From a virus (lineage: Duplodnaviria; Heunggongvirae; Uroviricota; Caudoviricetes), in IMG/VR virus record IMGVR_UViG_2698536681_000004: a DNA stretch of 42,656 nucleotides. One strand, 5' to 3'. The notes beneath the pieces are model-generated. The model searched no databases. It worked only from the letters and a program-made list of their open reading frames with translations, and was not told where the DNA came from. Shown here in pieces: positions 2,735 to 42,321 of the stretch (the first letter of the stretch is position 1; each line of letters starts with the position of its first letter). The translations under genes were made by a program, and so were the position numbers.

Positions 2735-3300
2735 GTAAGCGTGCAGCAAGAACCGTATTGACGGGAATGTGTTATTCAGTCGGCAGTGCTACGCGCCAGG
2801 GGAGCAGTTCGCCGACCCGGTTTATCGGCCAGTCGGCTATGACGTCAAGGACATAGCGGAGGTAGCTTTCTGGCTCCACTCCGTTCAGTTTGCACGTCCC
2901 GATCAGGCTGTACAGCAGCGCTCCCCGCTCTCCTCCATGATCCGAACCGAAGAACAGGTAGTTTTTGCGGCCCAGACTGACCATCCGCAACGCATTTTCA
3001 GCGATGTTATTGTCCGCCTCAGCCCAGCCATCATCTGCATAGTACGTCAGCGCCGGCCACTGGTTCAGGGCATATGCGAACGCTTTCGCCAGTTCTGAGT
3101 GTCGCGACAGGGTTTTCATCTTTTCACGCAGCCAGCTTTCCAGGGATTTCAGCAGCGGTTTCGTTTTCAACTGACGTTCGGCAAGGCGCTGTTTCAGCAG
3201 GAAGATGTCGTCAGAAGAGATGTCGTTCATAAGCCCGTATTTTACCGGGCTTATTCTGTGACAACCAGGATAAAGAGATTTACAGCATGGTCAGGGAGGT
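2735..3300 (-). mobile_element. IS66-family element, 3' portion (terminal repeat starting GTAAGCG at 2735 plus tnpC C-terminal region)
   Basis: IS66-family inverted repeats typically begin 5'-GTAA; GTAAGCGTGCAGCAAG at 2735 lies just beyond the transposase C-terminus; upstream boundary with the prophage end is not resolved. Confidence 0.55.
2772..3230 (-). pseudogene. tnpC: IS66-family transposase TnpC (orf3), C-terminal fragment only
   Basis: Translation ...GRKNYLFFGSDHGGERGALLYSLIGTCKLNGVEPESYLRYVLDVIADWP...ELLPW matches the conserved C-terminal region of IS66 transposases; the N-terminal two thirds are absent and the frame closes at a stop at 3291-3293. Confidence 0.7.
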
Positions 3301-3337
3301 CAGCAGCCGCTTAGGCTGTCTATAGCGCGGCGATTTT

Positions 3338-3405
3338 TTTGATACCGATTTGCATTTCATTTGATACCGCTGAAAAACGCCGATACGCAACTTATTTGAT
3401 ACTAA
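3338..3405. repeat. Prophage right end (attR-like): three closely spaced TTTGATAC(C/T) motifs, putative transposase binding sites
   Basis: TTTGATACCG at 3338-3347 and 3360-3369, TTTGATACTA at 3395-3404; the same motif occurs three times in reverse complement at the other prophage end. Confidence 0.6.
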
Positions 3406-3448
3406 ATCGGCGCTTTTCTTTTGAGTTTTAGAATGAGTTTTTAAGCGT

Positions 3449-4186
3449 TCATTCACTCTCTTTCAAACCAGTTTTAACTGTTTGTGGTTTTGGGTAAGGC
3501 TGGACTTTGAATAGCTTTGTGTTAAGGCGTTTTCTGGCTCTCTTGTCCAGAAACCGGATGTAACGAAACTGACGGAATTTATGAACACTGGCTCTGTCGA
3601 TATTAGCCCGCAGATGTTCACCTCGCTGTCCTCCTCGTTTGATTGCATTCTTGCAAATCTCGTGATACCACTCGCCATCAAGTTCATAGAATGTTGTTTC
3701 ATGACTGCCTACATAATCAAAATTGCTTGCCTGGTACACGACACCAAGACAGCCACAACGCTCATCTGCAAACGACTGAACCCACTGCACCTGCGGATAA
3801 AGTTGTCTGATTAGTTTGAGCGCGTAACTGATTGCCCTTGATTCGGAGTTTCTCGGCATACAGTCATGCAGCCATAACCGGTTAAGCTCCATATATTCGC
3901 GGTTCTGCGTGCCAGTTACGACGCGTGCACCATTGTTTGGATTAAGGGCATAACCCCATTGCATTACGCCAACCAGCTCCCGTTCTGAAAATATGCCCAG
4001 ATGAAGGTAGGAATTATTTACGAAACGATGGCTGTAATGTTTATTGACGACGACCAGCCGGGCCAGCCAGCAACTTATTGTCTCAACCCGTAACTCACGG
4101 GAGCCATAACCGACGATATTGTCGTTATAGTGAATAAGTTCAGGCGTGCTGATGATACGGGATGTAACTTGCTTTCTGTTCCCCAC
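3449..4186 (-). CDS. mom: Mom-like DNA modification protein (start internal to the long ORF, approximate)
   Basis: ORF overlaps the 3' end of com exactly as mom does in Mu and is the last gene before the prophage end; the longest ORF (to 4381) would run through com so the true start is internal, candidate GTG at 4186; Mom family assigned by synteny. Confidence 0.55.
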
Positions 4187-4340
4187 GACAGGATTTCCTT
4201 GTGTATGTGGGGTGCTCTGTGGCGCTCTGAGATGTGATTTGATTGAGGGTTTTACAGCGCGGACATTTAACTTCCAGATAACTGAAGCTGGCTCGTGCCA
4301 GTAGCTTGTTACAATGTCGGCACCGTATGTTTCGATACAT
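4140..4340 (-). CDS. com: Com-like zinc-finger translational activator of mom
   Basis: ATG at 4340 preceded by AGGAGG; product [27 protein letters not shown] has the CxxC...CPRC zinc finger and strong similarity to Mu Com as recalled (IRCKNCNKLLFKA...IEIRCPRCK). Confidence 0.75.
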
Positions 4341-4383
4341 GGCCGCATAACCTCCTGCTTTGTTGTTGATATCTTTATCACTC

Positions 4384-4408
4384 AATCGATCGACAAAAAC
4401 GATCGATT
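4384..4408. promoter_or_regulatory. Perfect 9-bp inverted repeat with a GATC Dam site in each arm, upstream of com-mom
   Basis: AATCGATCG (4384-4392), 7-nt spacer ACAAAAA, CGATCGATT (4400-4408); GATC at 4388-4391 and 4401-4404, a third GATC at 4470-4473; sits about 45-70 bp upstream of the com ATG. Confidence 0.4.
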
Positions 4409-4596
4409 TGATTTATTTAATTGATACAACAAATAACACGAAATGTCATTAGCGAAAATTTATGAGTTTGATCACTAATTTTAAACGGTGCTGTAACGCA
4501 TAAGTGCTGAATGATTGTACATTTGAATACCGCAAAGCAAACAAATCAACTAATTTATAGAAGTCAATTGGTTAATTGCCAGCGTAAGAGGCTGCT

Positions 4597-4890
4597 ATGG
4601 ACAATCATGTAACGACGAGAAATCGAAAAATGATTGAAAATGCGGAAATCTATAATGATTATTTTTCCGATTATTCAGATGCCTGCAAATACAGTTCGAG
4701 TGCGGGAGAGTTCATATGCTTCAACTTTTTTATTAAATCTTATGTTTTTCCTCCACAGCAAGAAGATGGAGGTGTGCCACCTCCTGAAATCACTTTGCAC
4801 CGTATAGCCTCCGTCTCAATGATGGAGCAACAGGCTAATGAGCTGTATAGCATTCTGGGAACGATTCTACAAAAGCGTGAATCGGACTAA
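4597..4890 (+). CDS. Hypothetical protein, AT-rich ORF divergent from com-mom
   Basis: 97-codon ORF with AAGAGG 6 nt upstream of the ATG; AT-rich composition unlike the flanking phage genes; no family recognised. Confidence 0.4.
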   Translation: MDNHVTTRNRKMIENAEIYNDYFSDYSDACKYSSSAGEFICFNFFIKSYVFPPQQEDGGVPPPEITLHRIASVSMMEQQANELYSILGTILQKRESD

Positions 4891-5057
4891 TGATACCGGT
4901 TCATTTGCCTGCCCGGATGGGGAAGCAGGATTGACTGCTCCATAAGCAGCTATATTTCTGAATACGAAATACTATCCAGCGATTACATATGGCTGGATAG
5001 CGGCAAAGATGTTTTCATTAGTGTCAAACCGGCAGAGGACACCACCGGTTTGTATTG

Positions 5058-5312
5058 TTACATCATGGTACTGTCAGTTCCGGGCTGAGCCGGGTCTGGT
5101 TGCTCTGGCTGCGCGTCGGTTTTCGGCTCATTATCAGCATCACTGGCCGCAACTGCTGGCCCAATAAGTTTTGCCAGCACTTCATCAACGTAAGTGTCGA
5201 TTTGTGCCTCAAAATCCTTGCGGACCTGCGCTTTCAGCAACTTATTTACTTCACCGGAATACAGTGCCTGTTTTACCAGGTCTTCAGTGACGGTGCCTTT
5301 AATTTCTGGCAT
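5058..5312 (-). CDS. Hypothetical small acidic protein
   Basis: 84-codon ORF with AGGAGG 6 nt upstream of the ATG at 5312; no family recognised. Confidence 0.5.
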   Translation of the reverse strand: MPEIKGTVTEDLVKQALYSGEVNKLLKAQVRKDFEAQIDTYVDEVLAKLIGPAVAASDADNEPKTDAQPEQPDPAQPGTDSTMM

Positions 5313-5347
5313 GTATATCCTCCTTATGCGGGAATAAAGCCCTGCAA

Positions 5348-5530
5348 TCAGGGCTGGGTCGGGTCTTTTGGGAGCGGAGTTACCTGCGCTGTTTTACTGA
5401 GTTTTTCAGCTGCTGCGTCCTCAATTTTGCGGCGAACATAATTTCTGATGGCCTTATAACCACCACTCACCAGATATAACGCACATACTGCCGTGCAGAA
5501 ATACAATAAAATAAGCTGTAAAAATGTCAT
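5348..5530 (-). CDS. Hypothetical small membrane protein (single N-terminal transmembrane helix)
   Basis: ATG at 5530 preceded by GGGAGGG; product MTFLQLILLYFCTAVCALYLVSGG then a basic tail; no family recognised. Confidence 0.45.
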   Translation of the reverse strand: MTFLQLILLYFCTAVCALYLVSGGYKAIRNYVRRKIEDAAAEKLSKTAQVTPLPKDPTQP

Positions 5531-5579
5531 TATCCCTCCCAATTATTGACATGGTGTTGACACCGGTAATATCTGTTAG

Positions 5580-5667
5580 GTAAAAAGGTGCACTGCATTT
5601 TTTGCTTTGGATATAACGATCTTTTTGCCGCCGGTTTCTTGTTTTCCCTTACCGGCGGCATTTTTTT
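5580..5667 (+). ncRNA. Candidate small RNA (promoter-like hexamers plus strong intrinsic terminator, no ORF)
   Basis: TTGACA at 5546-5551 and 5557-5562, TAATAT at 5567-5572, then about 85 nt downstream a terminator; lies in the intergenic space between two minus-strand genes. Confidence 0.25.
5626..5667 (+). terminator. Rho-independent terminator, plus strand
   Basis: Perfect 10-bp stem TGCCGCCGGT (5626-5635) / ACCGGCGGCA (5651-5660), 15-nt loop, followed by TTTTTTT (5661-5667). Confidence 0.6.
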
Positions 5668-5674
5668 ATCCTGC

Positions 5675-7729
5675 TTACGCGTTATTCACTTCCACCACGA
5701 TACTGTCAATCAGTACCGGGTAAGTCGCATTTTTAGTGATATCGGTCACGCGCAACTTGTCTGCCGTAAACGTGCCGACCGGAGACTGCGACAGCATGAA
5801 TGGTGTCCCGTCCTTACCATCAATGACCGGCGTCACCTCAATACTGTTGTTACCGGCAAAACGGAAGCCCAGCGTATGCCATTCGTTATTAAATGCGCCG
5901 AATGACCCCAGCTTCGTGTTCTGCGCCGTGTTTCCTTTGTGATACATCACGTTAAGGTCTGTGGCATCGCTCTGTACGTAGAACGATGCCAGCAGGTTAT
6001 GACCGGCATTTCCTTCCAGAGTAACCCCTTGCGGCAGGGCAGAAACCGGCCAGTACAGCGCCAGTGCGTACTGATTAGCCGTAAGCGCGCCATCGAGTTT
6101 AAAACGACAACTGACAAGACCACCTTTACCCAGCAGGTCCGCACCATTACCAGCATCATGCTCAAGGTACCAGGGGGCTCTTCCTGTTTCCTTGGTCAGT
6201 TTCATTGCCTTACCCCCGCTGGCTCCGGCATCATCCACGATTTGAGCCTTGCCACCTCCGGCAGCCCAACCCTGTGGTGTCAACCGTCCTTCAGACTCAG
6301 ATGCCCGGTAAGCAAATAGCGTACTCATCGTCGTGGTGTCTGCGGGTGGCGTGGACGGTTTTGATGGTGTATCAGGTGACGGCTTCTCATCCGGTGGTGT
6401 CACGGTCTGCCCACGCATCAGTTCAGCCGTGCGCCCTGCATGGAGCATAATAGCTGAGGCCAGACGGTCTGAAATGACGCCCCTGCGTGCCCATGAGCTG
6501 AAATGGCTGTCACGCTGTGTCGAAACAAAACTGCCCTGGGTTCGGGATGCTGCACCGTAATACCCGACAGCCACAATATCCGGGTCTTCCGCCGGAGCAT
6601 TCGTTGGCGTGCTCTGTCCATTCTCATCCGTCAGGAACGGTACAAAGAAAATTTTCTGTGCTTCCTTGCCTTTGTAGCCACCGTATACTGCCTCATATTT
6701 ATCGGTGCCAGCGTTTTTCCAGTAATACGTGGTATCACCGCAAATCCACGGCACCGTGGTGGCATTTCCACTCACGCACTGCGCAGCAAGCGGAGCCAGG
6801 TCAGTTCTGAACTGCTGAACCATGGCCGTGAATAAACTATTATGCTGCTGGCTTCCTGAGGCAAGGTCTGCCTCTCCCTGCATCCAGACCACAGCCAGAA
6901 GTTTGTTTTTCGGGTTTTTCGCCAGCGCGACTTTGGTGCGGCTTACCAGGTCCTGATACAGAGGTTTACCGGCCCCCCAGCGTGAAGAATCAGCGGAAGC
7001 ACCGCTGGCCTCACTGAATGAGCCGTCGGCTCCAGTGGTGAATGCTGACCCGCCACGACAACAGGGCACCAGAAGTATCCCGGCATTCTGTGGGATATAG
7101 GGAAGCAGTTTTTTGGCAATATGCAACCCCTGACCGACAGTCCCGTACTGGCCTTTTGCCAGATCAGCTTTCGGGTGGTTTATCCCGCTCATATCCTGAA
7201 CATCATGCAGGCAGTGGTCTGCCGGAATGATGTCGTTGTATGTACACGACGTACCGTTGGGCGTTACCGTACTGCGGCGTGCCAGTTGCTTAATGCGTGG
7301 GTCCGGGCGGTCAAACGAATCCGGTAACGGCAGCCCCTCGCCGTAGGCCATGCCATTTGACTGACCCGCGAGAATGACAACAAAGTAATATTCCGGCTCT
7401 GAACTGCTGCCATTCGTGCTACCGGAAGGCCCGGCGTTATCCGGTGCATTCCAGTCGGAGGGCGTGAGCGTTCCGGCCACGTCAGATGTGATTGGAATGA
7501 TGCCAGTCACGCCTGAACTGGTGATTTCTGCACTGGGATTACCGGATACCGGCATTACCCATAATGGCTCTTTCGTGCTGAAGCGGATCACGCAGTCTGC
7601 GAAGGTGATCCCCCCTTTATTACCCGAAGGGCGGAAAGGGCTTTCAATAAATGCCACCGTGCCACCGGCAACCTTGACTGAAAACTCTCCGGGCATGGCG
7701 GAGAGCATTTTCCACTTGGAGTCTGACAT
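5675..7729 (-). CDS. NanS-p-like sialate O-acetylesterase family protein (SGNH/DUF303 esterase with C-terminal lectin-like domain)
   Basis: Catalytic-type motifs VVILAGQSNGMAYGEG and VVWMQGEADL typical of SASA/DUF303 esterases; 684 aa, comparable to prophage NanS-p esterases. Confidence 0.65.
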   Translation of the reverse strand: MSDSKWKMLSAMPGEFSVKVAGGTVAFIESPFRPSGNKGGITFADCVIRFSTKEPLWVMPVSGNPSAEITSSGVTGIIPITSDVAGTLTPSDWNAPDNAGPSGSTNGSSSEPEYYFVVILAGQSNGMAYGEGLPLPDSFDRPDPRIKQLARRSTVTPNGTSCTYNDIIPADHCLHDVQDMSGINHPKADLAKGQYGTVGQGLHIAKKLLPYIPQNAGILLVPCCRGGSAFTTGADGSFSEASGASADSSRWGAGKPLYQDLVSRTKVALAKNPKNKLLAVVWMQGEADLASGSQQHNSLFTAMVQQFRTDLAPLAAQCVSGNATTVPWICGDTTYYWKNAGTDKYEAVYGGYKGKEAQKIFFVPFLTDENGQSTPTNAPAEDPDIVAVGYYGAASRTQGSFVSTQRDSHFSSWARRGVISDRLASAIMLHAGRTAELMRGQTVTPPDEKPSPDTPSKPSTPPADTTTMSTLFAYRASESEGRLTPQGWAAGGGKAQIVDDAGASGGKAMKLTKETGRAPWYLEHDAGNGADLLGKGGLVSCRFKLDGALTANQYALALYWPVSALPQGVTLEGNAGHNLLASFYVQSDATDLNVMYHKGNTAQNTKLGSFGAFNNEWHTLGFRFAGNNSIEVTPVIDGKDGTPFMLSQSPVGTFTADKLRVTDITKNATYPVLIDSIVVEVNNA

Positions 7730-7800: not shown

Positions 7801-7834
7801 AATTCAAAAAAGCGTCACGGTACTTTTGGTGACG
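7801..7834 (-). terminator. Intrinsic terminator overlapping the invertase stop codon
   Basis: Stem CGTCAC (7813-7818) / GTGACG (7829-7834) with a 10-nt loop; on the minus strand followed by CTTTTTTGAATT. Confidence 0.5.
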
Positions 7835-8391
7835 GAGCTGGTGAGGCAGGAAAATAACGATAAAGGGTGGAAAGGCCAATATCAAATATCAGTGCGATTT
7901 GTTTACGGGACTCGCCATTAGCCAGCAAACGGGCGATTTGCTCCCGCTCTTTCTCTGTCAGTTTCTGAGGTCTGCCGCCATGACGCCCCTGAGCACGGGC
8001 AGCAGCAAGACCCGCGCGTGTACGTTCAATAATGAGTTCCCGCTCCATTTCCGCCAGCGCGCCCATTATATGGAAAAAGAAACGTCCCATGGGAGTGGAT
8101 GTATCAATATTGTCCGTAATGCTGCGGAAGTTAACGCCGCGTTGCCGGAGTTCTTCTGTTAAAAGGACAAGGTGCTGCATACTGCGTCCAAGGCGATCCA
8201 GTTTCCAGACCAGCAGGGTATCCCCTGGCCGGAGTCGCTTTAATGCGCGTTTAAGTCCGGGACGCTCCCTTGTCTTACCGCTTATTCTGTCTTCGAAAAA
8301 CAGCTCACATCCTGCACATTCCAGCGCATTTCTTTGTAGCGCCGTATTCTGGTCATTTGTTGACACCCTGATATACCCAATNNNNNNNNNN
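7815..8391 (-). CDS. gin: Serine recombinase, DNA invertase of the Gin/Pin/Hin family (first codons lost in the assembly gap)
   Basis: Translation IGYIRVSTNDQNTALQRNALECAGCELFFEDRISGKTRERPGLKRALKRL...GRFFFHIMGALAEMERELIIERT is near-identical in pattern to Gin/Pin; reading frame runs into the N-run at 8392. Confidence 0.9.
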
Positions 8392-8723
8392 NNNNNNNNN
8401 NNNNNNNNNNNNNNNNNNNNNNNNNNNNNNNNNNNNNNNNNNNNNNNNNNNNNNNNNNNNNNNNNNNNNNNNNNNNNNNNNNNNNNNNNNNNNNNNNNNN
8501 NNNNNNNNNNNNNNNNNNNNNNNNNNNNNNNNNNNNNNNNNNNNNNNNNNNNNNNNNNNNNNNNNNNNNNNNNNNNNNNNNNNNNNNNNNNNNNNNNNNN
8601 NNNNNNNNNNNNNNNNNNNNNNNNNNNNNNNNNNNNNNNNNNNNNNNNNNNNNNNNNNNNNNNNNNNNNNNNNNNNNNNNNNNNNNNNNNNNNNNNNNNN
8701 NNNNNNNNNNNNNNNNNNNNNNN
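8392..8723. other. Assembly gap (332 N)
   Basis: Uninterrupted run of n characters. Confidence 1.
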
Positions 8724-32015: not shown

Positions 32016-32438
32016 TCAGAAAAGCCGTGGCTGCGTGCGTTCCTGATGCAGGCGACGCTGGTTGCGGATAACGGAGTAAATCTGCGTCTCTGACATCTGG
32101 TAGTGGCGGCGCAGGGTTTCAATTTTTTCGCCCTGGCTCCAGCGGGAAAAAATTTCATTATTGCGCAGTTCGGTGAAAAGGGATTCACCGACCGGGAGAT
32201 AATAACCACGCCCGCCCATGTACCCGGCCTGTGCGGCTGCAACCTTACGGGCAAGCATTCCCGCCTGAGCAGGTTCAATCCCCTGACGGTGCAGTTCAGC
32301 ACTGATCACATCAACCAGGTCCCGCAGCGTGCCGGGCCAGTTCTTTTTCAGCTCATCATCAGGAATATCATCCAGACGGTCAATCAGCGCGTGCAGCTGT
32401 TCGCTGTCACCAAACATGCTCATCTGTGTTTCAGCCAT
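32016..32438 (-). CDS. mor: Mor/C-family transcriptional activator
   Basis: C-terminal region GGRGYYLPVGESLF..NNEIFSRW..ETLRRHYQMSETQIYSVIRNQRR fits the Mor/C family pattern; sits between gemA-like gene and lysis genes. Confidence 0.65.
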   Translation of the reverse strand: MAETQMSMFGDSEQLHALIDRLDDIPDDELKKNWPGTLRDLVDVISAELHRQGIEPAQAGMLARKVAAAQAGYMGGRGYYLPVGESLFTELRNNEIFSRWSQGEKIETLRRHYQMSETQIYSVIRNQRRLHQERTQPRLF

Positions 32439-32508
32439 ACCCGCCTCCGGTCATCATTACACAGGGCAAGTTTAAAATAAAAATCCCGCGCTGTGGCGGG
32501 ATTTGGGG

Positions 32509-41836: not shown

Positions 41837-42000
41837 CAGTATCAAATGAGTTGCCGATTTTATAATAAATGACTAATTATTGCACAATCGGTATCAAATA
41901 GACCTTATCCGCACATCTAGCCATCACCTGTTTTATTTCAGTATCTTACAGGTGATTTCACCTCCTTTCACTAAACCCCTTGTCGGTATCAAATGATTCA
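41837..42000. repeat. Prophage left end (attL-like): three spaced copies of the end motif in reverse complement, terminal CA at 42000
   Basis: CAGTATCAAATG (41837-41848), CGGTATCAAATA (41889-41900), CGGTATCAAATG (41985-41996); spread-out spacing contrasts with the compact set at the other end, as for Mu attL versus attR. Confidence 0.6.
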
Positions 42001-42321
42001 CCTGGTTATATGTCGCCAGTCGATACCTTCCAGCAGCATCGCCAGCTGCGCCTGTGTAAGGAACACTTTGCCATCACGGGCTGACGGCCAGGCGAAGCGC
42101 CCACGCTCCAGCCGTTTGGTCAGGAGGCACAGTCCGTCACTGGTGGACCACAGCAGTTTAACCTGACTGCCGCTGCGGCCCCGGAAAATGAAAACATGGC
42201 CGGACATGGGATCGTCTTTCAGCGCCGTCTGTACTTTCGCAGCCAGGCCGTTGAAGCCATTTCTCATATCGGTGATACCGGCAACCAGCCAAATTTTGAT
42301 CCCGGAAGGTAACGGGATCAT
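41998..42321 (-). CDS. tnpB: IS66-family accessory protein TnpB (orf2)
   Basis: Translation MIPLPSGIKIWLVAGITDMRNGFNGLAAKVQ...DGKVFLTQAQLAMLLEGIDWR matches IS66 Orf2; the C-terminus may be altered by the prophage junction. Confidence 0.8.
   Translation of the reverse strand: MIPLPSGIKIWLVAGITDMRNGFNGLAAKVQTALKDDPMSGHVFIFRGRSGSQVKLLWSTSDGLCLLTKRLERGRFAWPSARDGKVFLTQAQLAMLLEGIDWRHITR

Follow-up and report, generated by a model that had tools for sequence, protein, structure and literature searches.

Among the known systems close to the locus analysed here is the mom operon of Mu, for which Dam/OxyR control has been established (PMC3378877). The RNA site recognised by its translational activator Com was defined by SELEX as the bipartite motif GAGNNCC(N)2-3GAGNNCC (PMC6483171), and a 2026 study listed R111, S124, R151, D149, H58, Y59, Y159, W48 and W181 as residues essential or important for Mu Mom (PMC13219725; the residue numbering of that study equals the annotated Mu numbering plus 10). 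Homologues of Mom and of its regulator Com are also encoded by Sp18 (PMC3299994), the Mu-like prophage of E. coli O157:H7 Sakai. Two further operators are relevant to the control region. In gtr of P22, single OxyR half-sites enclose pairs of GATC sites 13 bp apart, and OxyR no longer binds once these are methylated (PMC2909390), while agn43 (flu) of E. coli K-12, a validated Dam/OxyR switch, carries a perfect 10-bp palindrome (TTATCGATCG-N7-CGATCGATAA) with a 7-nt loop and one GATC in each arm. We compared with these systems a 42,656-nt stretch of caudoviral DNA (IMG/VR record IMGVR_UViG_2698536681_000004; hereafter the window). Our main reading, to which we assign a probability of roughly 0.8, is that the window contains a complete Sp18-like prophage that carries a com-mom operon at its right end, with mom gated both by a Com/hairpin switch and by a bipartite Dam/OxyR operator. 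Mu positions were taken from AF083977 together with its annotated promoter features, and D108 was represented by NC_013594.

A complete Sp18-like prophage of the Mu type (~3321 to ~41900, minus strand) has the com-mom module at its right end; its genes include MuA, MuB, Gam, Gp11, GemA, one Mor/C-family activator, a lysozyme, Mu-type head and tail genes and a Gin-like invertase. The right end itself (3321-3410) contains the motif TTTGATAC(C/T) in repeated copies; leftwards from about 3314-3321 the flanking host DNA changes from one genome to another, and matches to E. coli start at query positions 15-22. Of 5426 complete E. coli genomes, 233 carry the com-mom segment, and its host neighbours differ in every case, as expected because the phage is transposable. 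The window shares 92% nucleotide identity with the "inserted Mu-like phage" of some Stx phages, and the module 93-96% with its counterparts in O157 genomes; the prophage DNA is not close to that of Mu. The regulatory region occurs in subtypes, with the window type represented by 17 of 235 records (at least 99% identity) and the majority type by 217 of 235 (90-95% identity). The window subtype differs from the majority upstream of position 4435 and in 18 nt between the palindrome described below and the com leader.

The mom gene occupies positions 3449-4186 (minus strand, GTG start at 4186-4184) and encodes a 245-aa protein predicted, by family match, to be a tRNA(Gly)-dependent adenine aminoacyltransferase. 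Within the 310-aa open reading frame 3449-4381, the Mom domain corresponds to residues 96-298 (Pfam PF25680, E=1.6e-77), and the match is full-length (profile positions 1-202 of 202, 260.2 bits versus a cut-off of 27.1). Read from GTG 4186, the product shows 78% identity to Mu Mom and matches the solved structure of the latter (PDB 8bv8, E=2.4e-123) with residues 5-233 covered. All nine activity residues of Mu Mom fall in invariant columns of the alignment of the window, Mu and D108 proteins, their counterparts in the window being R103, S116, R143, D141, H50, Y51, Y151, W40 and W173, respectively. The GNAT fold of Mu Mom has an HTH-like insertion (residues ~175-209) that is required for activity; this region aligns without gaps and is mostly identical. 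Searches with the NCBIfam HMMs returned no match for Mom or Com. The GTG 4186 start is the one used for RefSeq entry WP_000528246.1 in an identical copy of the locus. A long Mom isoform spanning the whole 310-aa frame was considered and rejected: the upstream extension of the mom frame runs into stops after 27 codons in close relatives and has a variable length elsewhere, so that the long frame is an accident, and ATG 4348 lies only 2 nt from the Shine-Dalgarno sequence. On its family assignment, the protein would act as a GNAT-fold enzyme moving glycine from Gly-tRNA(Gly) onto N6 of adenine in double-stranded DNA, after which the product would rearrange to carbamoylmethyl-adenine and shield the phage DNA from restriction.

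Directly upstream of mom, and overlapping it by 47 nt (4140-4186), lies com (4140-4340, minus strand, ATG 4340), which encodes a putative zinc-ribbon translational activator of mom of 66 aa. A Shine-Dalgarno sequence, AGGAGG (4351-4356, minus strand), was read from the sequence 10 nt before the ATG. The product matches Pfam PF10122 (Zn_ribbon_Com; E=7.5e-13, 48.2 bits versus a cut-off of 22.9), and its cysteine quartet C7, C10, C26 and C29 is invariant with that of Mu Com (positions 6, 9, 26 and 29, respectively); a search of the PDB gave no sequence match for Com. RefSeq annotates the same two coding sequences in the identical copy, naming them Mom (245 aa) and Com (66 aa).

The mRNA around the mom start was examined against a comparison set of 102 mom loci drawn from genomes and viral contigs, 57 of them with com, which provided 33 distinct upstream sequences (types numbered with the prefix L). 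Inside the 3' part of com, the putative Com-binding RNA motif GAGCGCC-ACA-GAGCACC (4211-4227, minus strand) is an exact instance of the SELEX motif, and this motif also stands at the equivalent place in four other upstream types (L051, L056, L011 and L013). It lies directly 5' of a predicted translation-inhibition hairpin (4181-4212, minus strand; RNA fold of -14.3 kcal/mol), the outer stem of which pairs CCCCAC (4212-4207) with GUGGGG (4186-4181), burying the mom GUG in its 3' arm, while the mom Shine-Dalgarno sequence AGGA (4199-4196) is part of an inner stem. A start-codon hairpin was found in every com-containing type examined; it is equivalent in Mu, L007, L010, L051, L053, L054, L056 and L071, and has different stem sequences in L008, L011, L012, L013 and L070, the distant types being those that differ. 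As judged from the sequence, the Mu scheme of translational control is fully present: the hairpin 4212-4181 would lock the mom GUG and Shine-Dalgarno sequence until Com, made from the same transcript, bound the GAGNNCC repeats (4227-4211) just 5' of it and opened it. The original prediction had placed here a Com-like zinc-finger gene overlapping the start of a Mom-like gene, as in Mu, and both assignments are borne out, the former by the Pfam match, the four cysteines, the 47-nt overlap and the conserved RNA switch, and the latter by the Mom family match, the identity to Mu Mom and the retention of the catalytic residues; the GTG start that it had assumed for the 3449-4186 product agrees with RefSeq.

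The control region upstream of com contains a perfect palindrome, AATCGATCG-N7-CGATCGATT (4384-4408), with 9-bp arms at 4384-4392 and 4400-4408 and a 7-nt loop. Each arm holds one Dam site, GATC 4388-4391 and GATC 4401-4404, which are 13 bp apart (GATC-N9-GATC). Taken alone, the palindrome is statistically unremarkable: the window contains 11 perfect inverted repeats with arms of at least 9 bp and loops of up to 12 nt, versus 2.7 expected, and a GATC-N9-GATC pair appears in about half of the simulated windows (~0.66 expected per window of this size). It is more than a chance feature because of its position and conservation. Its two GATCs are among only three in the interval 2943-5617, the third (4470) being outside the conserved block and missing from the majority subtype. 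GATC-N9-GATC was found upstream of com in all 11 distinct enterobacterial upstream types examined, the bases between the GATCs varying among them, and was absent from the marine gamma- and deltaproteobacterial upstream types. A 100-bp regulatory block is at least 91% identical in all 233 module-carrying E. coli genomes, and among window-type variants the GATC pair and its N9 are invariant, the next 18 nt being variable. No second copy of the palindrome with up to three mismatches was detected in any intergenic region of the window, and Rfam contained no family for the com-mom leader or the palindrome.

The GATC pair frames a 15-mer with a moderate match, at 7 of 10 positions, to the OxyR dimer half-site consensus used here, ATAGnTnnnAnCTAT, which is degenerate and has 10 scored positions. 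This OxyR-like half-site 2, ATCGTTTTTGTCGAT (4403-4389, minus strand), thus falls within the palindrome, and half-site 1, ATTTGTTGTATCAAT (4420-4434, minus strand; likewise 7/10), begins 31 bp upstream of it, start to start. Half-site 1 marks the beginning of the conserved block common with O157-type prophages and is devoid of GATC in the window lineage. The window, Mu and most of the remaining upstream types have their best second half-site at exactly 31 bp. When half-site scores were summed over the 11 upstream types, they peaked at offset 31 (61, versus 22-45 elsewhere), a value reached by none of 20000 shuffles, although this test overstates independence because the compared upstream types are related to one another.

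Together, the homology to Mu, the conservation across 11 upstream types, the half-sites 31 bp apart and the parallels with agn43 and gtr mean that the palindrome is best read as the putative proximal half of a Dam-sensitive OxyR operator, and we infer Dam/OxyR control of com-mom in the window. The palindrome (4384-4408) would form the promoter-proximal half of a bipartite operator (4434-4420 and 4403-4389), its two GATCs bracketing the half-site just as they do in Mu mom, agn43 and gtr. When unmethylated, the operator would bind OxyR and the operon would be silent; Dam methylation of both GATCs would exclude OxyR. In a dam+ lysogen, control by OxyR only would leave the promoter unrepressed. 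We infer OxyR binding and its sensitivity to methylation, like the transcription start and the late activator's part considered below, from sequence comparison.

A sigma-70 scan of the minus strand from 3200 to 4700 returned no promoter, so both promoter models considered rest on sub-threshold hexamers. Candidate promoter B (4421-4449, minus strand), read from the sequence, consists of ATGACA (4449-4444), a 17-nt spacer and TATCAA (4426-4421), a -10 that lacks the final T. It is kept in both lineage subtypes, with ATGACA or ATGACT, an equal spacer length and TATCAA. Transcription from it would start near 4414, and the palindrome would then span about +7 to +31, a layout resembling that of agn43. 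Candidate promoter A (4371-4377, minus strand) has a weak -10, TAAAGA/AAAGAT, which aligns with the Mu TAAGAT and comes 10-11 nt after the proximal GATC; here the palindrome would cover the spacer and the -35 region. Good -10 hexamers occupy the promoter A position in L051 and L052 (TATACT), L053 (TATAGT) and L007 (TAGATT), and L007 and L051-L053 have the same short form as the window, with the -10 right after the GATC pair. Close window-type variants are without a good -10 at this position (GAGAAAGGC, GAAGCAAAC), AAAGAT is not conserved among them, and nowhere in the region is conservation lower than in the promoter A segment. Promoter B is favoured, at slightly better than even odds, over promoter A, which we regard as a possible but rather unlikely choice.

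Under either model, the operator probably overlaps the core promoter, covering the -10 and the start site (model B) or the spacer and the -35 (model A), because the C box and -35 region of Mu have no counterpart in the window. A Mu-type C box upstream of com was sought as TTAT-N6-ATAA(CC) and rejected, no minus-strand match with up to two mismatches being present in 4341-4560. With the operator on the core promoter, OxyR would repress by occlusion.

The late activator that could act on such a promoter is encoded at 32016-32438 (minus strand; 140 aa, Pfam Mor E=6.7e-31). It is 40% identical to Mu C and 28% identical to Mu Mor, and is the only Mor/C-family member among the prophage ORFs scanned, which were a part of the total. 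The regions upstream of lys, of the I homologue and of the DUF6645 gene have in common YCCGCAAA-N22/23-TAYNCT, marking candidate late promoters, although the statistics of this pattern are inflated because it was derived after seeing these regions. Upstream of com, the window subtype has only TTCGCTAA-N22-TATCAA, a 6/8 version in register with promoter B, which is not found in the majority subtype. A motif common to the com upstream region and those of lys, I and P was considered and rejected: the sole match is a reversed CCGCAAA ~190 nt upstream of com, facing the plus-strand ORF 4597-4890.

These observations leave room for a tentative reading, to which we give clearly less than even odds, that the mom promoter has been rewired in the Sp18-like lineage. 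The segment with the C box and -35 would be absent and the Dam/OxyR operator would sit on the core promoter, both its arrangement and its palindrome nearly matching those of agn43; whether the two GATCs are methylated would then be the main determinant of transcription, with late-activator input coming via another box or not at all. If this rewired promoter is real, epigenetic switching of the prophage copy, of the kind seen in agn43 and gtr, would in principle be conceivable.

Four alternative explanations of the palindrome were weighed against a Dam-sensitive OxyR operator. The one that survives best, although improbable, is that promoter strength responds directly to Dam methylation, or that SeqA binds the GATC pair while it is hemimethylated after replication, in either case without OxyR. 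Mu-type phages produce large amounts of hemimethylated DNA during lytic replication. Under promoter model A, moreover, the GATCs would lie in the spacer and -35 region, and the activity of the gtr promoter depends directly on whether GATC4 (-33) is methylated (PMC2909390). Such a mechanism, however, leaves unaccounted for both the conserved, GATC-free half-site 31 bp upstream and the conserved consensus positions outside the GATCs, and the register is identical to those of Mu and agn43, which are known to be bound by OxyR.

Slightly less probable still is that the palindrome is the site of the phage's own Mor/C-family late activator (32016-32438), its GATCs being incidental. Mor/C proteins bind dyad-symmetric sites, as at Pm and Pmom of Mu, and the palindrome is a dyad of suitable size; since the C box of Mu is missing, something must also replace it. 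However, Mor and C sites are centred at -43.5, whereas the palindrome centre (4396) can be at most ~35 bp from any start site because of the com Shine-Dalgarno sequence at 4356-4351. What the putative late promoters of lys, I and the DUF6645 gene share is the other motif described above, and the intergenic late regions hold no further copy of the palindrome within three mismatches. In addition, Mu possesses the palindrome plus a separate C box, and the nearly identical palindrome of agn43 functions without a phage activator.

An RNA hairpin or intrinsic terminator is a very unlikely explanation. The palindrome was flagged as terminator-like on the plus strand, where it has a T-rich tail (TGATTTATTT), and its RNA folds at -11.7 kcal/mol (z=-2.9), but the plus strand upstream of it holds only the antisense of com and mom, leaving no gene to terminate, and no U-run follows it in the com direction. 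Furthermore, it is the GATCs and not the stem that are conserved: the arms measure 8 bp in Mu, and L007, L009, L053 and L054 show little or no complementarity beyond the GATCs. Least likely of all is that the palindrome arose by chance in AT-rich intergenic DNA; although the ~2.7 repeats and ~0.66 GATC pairs expected per window would allow it, this is disfavoured by the comparative data, namely the position, the conservation over upstream types and genera, and the homology to Mu.

Preferring the Dam-sensitive OxyR operator on these grounds, we consider the locus to be a known anti-restriction module with a known kind of methylation switch, both genes of which are already annotated. The window thus holds a functional-looking copy of a well-studied system, of little import beyond correct annotation, and the shortened promoter architecture, which appears to be a modest variant, is its only apparently unreported aspect.

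The module resembles that of Mu in several respects. At the corresponding place Mu has AATCGATC-N9-GATCGATT, that is, its second and third GATCs with the same 13-bp spacing, and the flanks of the GATC pair are identical (AAATCGATCG...GATCGATT). An OxyR-like half-site, ATAGAAAACGACGAT, also lies 31 bp upstream, com overlaps the mom start (47 nt in the window, 50 nt in the Mu annotation), and the hairpin that holds the GUG start is immediately preceded, on its 5' side, by the Com site. On the other hand, Mu has three operator GATCs and the window two, the first GATC of Mu being without a counterpart because the equivalent position reads TATT. The palindrome arms are 8 bp in Mu and 9 bp in the window; the last GATC is 40 nt from the -10 TAAGAT in Mu and 11 nt from the aligned hexamer in the window; and the distance from operator to com is ~29 bp shorter in the window. 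The 40-nt stretch in Mu holds the C box TTATgccccaATAA, a poor -35 and a T6 run, for which the window has no counterpart. Elsewhere, the window prophage has four extra genes between the invertase gene and com, and one Mor/C-family activator among the ORFs scanned where Mu has two. Set against the original prediction, the perfect 9-bp inverted repeat with a GATC in each arm is indeed present upstream of com, and its resemblance to the Dam/OxyR-controlled region of Mu mom holds, being homologous to GATC II/III of Mu and near-identical to the agn43 operator; the "different geometry" that was claimed stands for the number of GATCs and the distance to com, but not for the operator spacing, which is that of Mu (GATCs at 13 bp, half-sites at 31 bp). 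The place of the operator differs by lineage: in Mu it precedes the C box, and in the window it abuts or overlaps the core promoter. Such differences provide natural variants for studying how OxyR represses.

The agn43 palindrome is identical to that of the window at 21 of 25 positions, with GATC-N9-GATC in both, and its second half-site lies 32 bp upstream as compared with 31 bp in the window (about three helical turns). If promoter B is right, the two would also be alike in that the operator extends over the -10 and the start site into the early transcribed region, as judged for agn43 by the start of the annotated IsrC transcript. They differ in that agn43 has three GATCs and governs a host adhesin with heritable ON/OFF switching, whereas the window gives no sign of phase variation, and the similarity between them is confined to the palindrome. 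In gtr of P22, a GATC pair at -46/-33 overlaps the promoter much as in window model A, but this operator has four GATCs and three half-sites, at which OxyR takes up either activating or repressing positions, as against the two half-sites visible in the window (PMC2909390). In the comparison set, GATC-N9-GATC with a second half-site 31-32 bp upstream is a conserved signature of enterobacterial com-mom operons; agn43 and gtr share it, and it could help to recognise Dam/OxyR operators.

The bipartite Com-binding motif derived by SELEX, GAGNNCC(N)2-3GAGNNCC (PMC6483171), is matched exactly in the mom leader of the window (4211-4227) and in those of four of the comparison mom loci collected from genomes and viral contigs (L051, L056, L011 and L013), whereas the mom leader of phage Mu itself contains no exact match. 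Other comparison loci, namely L003, L014-L017, L020 and L072-L105, carry mom without com, and no com-like ORF was found in their 1.2-3 kb flanks. These genes lie in a lambdoid setting, with a Q antiterminator and terminator, or tRNA genes, as the 5' neighbour. They are preceded by a conserved, structured leader of ~100-140 nt (L003:1391-1494, and the equivalent position in the other com-less loci), in which GGGYG/CRCCC forms an outer stem around a long hairpin whose sequence varies by lineage, followed on the 3' side by a GUCACGAGYAC...GGAGURC hairpin that contains the SD, beside the start codon. RNA folding gave the same fold independently for every variant, and no matching family was found in Rfam. 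The structured leader may provide Com-independent control of mom.

The Mu-like prophage in the window has at its right end three TTTGATAC(C/T) repeats (3337-3404), which are probably transposase-binding sites. The sequence TTGATACAA (+ strand) recurs at 4421-4429, within the OxyR-like half-site 1 upstream of com, probably by coincidence. The prophage interrupts an IS66-family element (2772-3230 and 41998-42321): one flank holds the C-terminal part of the transposase, the opposite flank IS66 Orf2 (TnpB_IS66). To the left of the IS66 part are tail-fibre genes belonging to a different prophage (972-2718), along with a fragmentary NEL-type E3 ligase effector (280-792).

In Mu nothing separates the invertase gene from com, whereas the window has four additional genes there (4597-7729), encoding a protein of 684 aa in which a sialate O-acetylesterase (SASA) domain occurs together with DUF6645, followed by a DUF1378 and then a DUF826 protein, together with a 97-aa ORF on the + strand with no family match. 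The Gin-like invertase gene (7815-8366) adjoins masked sequence, a run of N at 8382-8723, in the region expected to hold an invertible tail-fibre segment.

Three late-gene upstream regions share the pattern YCCGCAAA-N22/23-TAYNCT, defined post hoc from sites already seen; these precede the DUF6645/SASA gene (7793-7800/7765-7770), the I homologue (23818-23825/23789-23794) and lys (32005-32012/31976-31981). It is a candidate box for the single Mor/C-family activator found among the scanned ORFs of this prophage, whereas Mu has two, Mor and C, and its activator box, CCATAACCCC, is unlike the candidate. Downstream of gemA and ahead of the activator gene, the segment 32441-32510 contains AAATCCCGC-N6-GCGGGATTT, an inverted repeat with perfectly matched arms and an accompanying T-run (32481-32504), similar to the dyad and terminator at the middle promoter of Mu.
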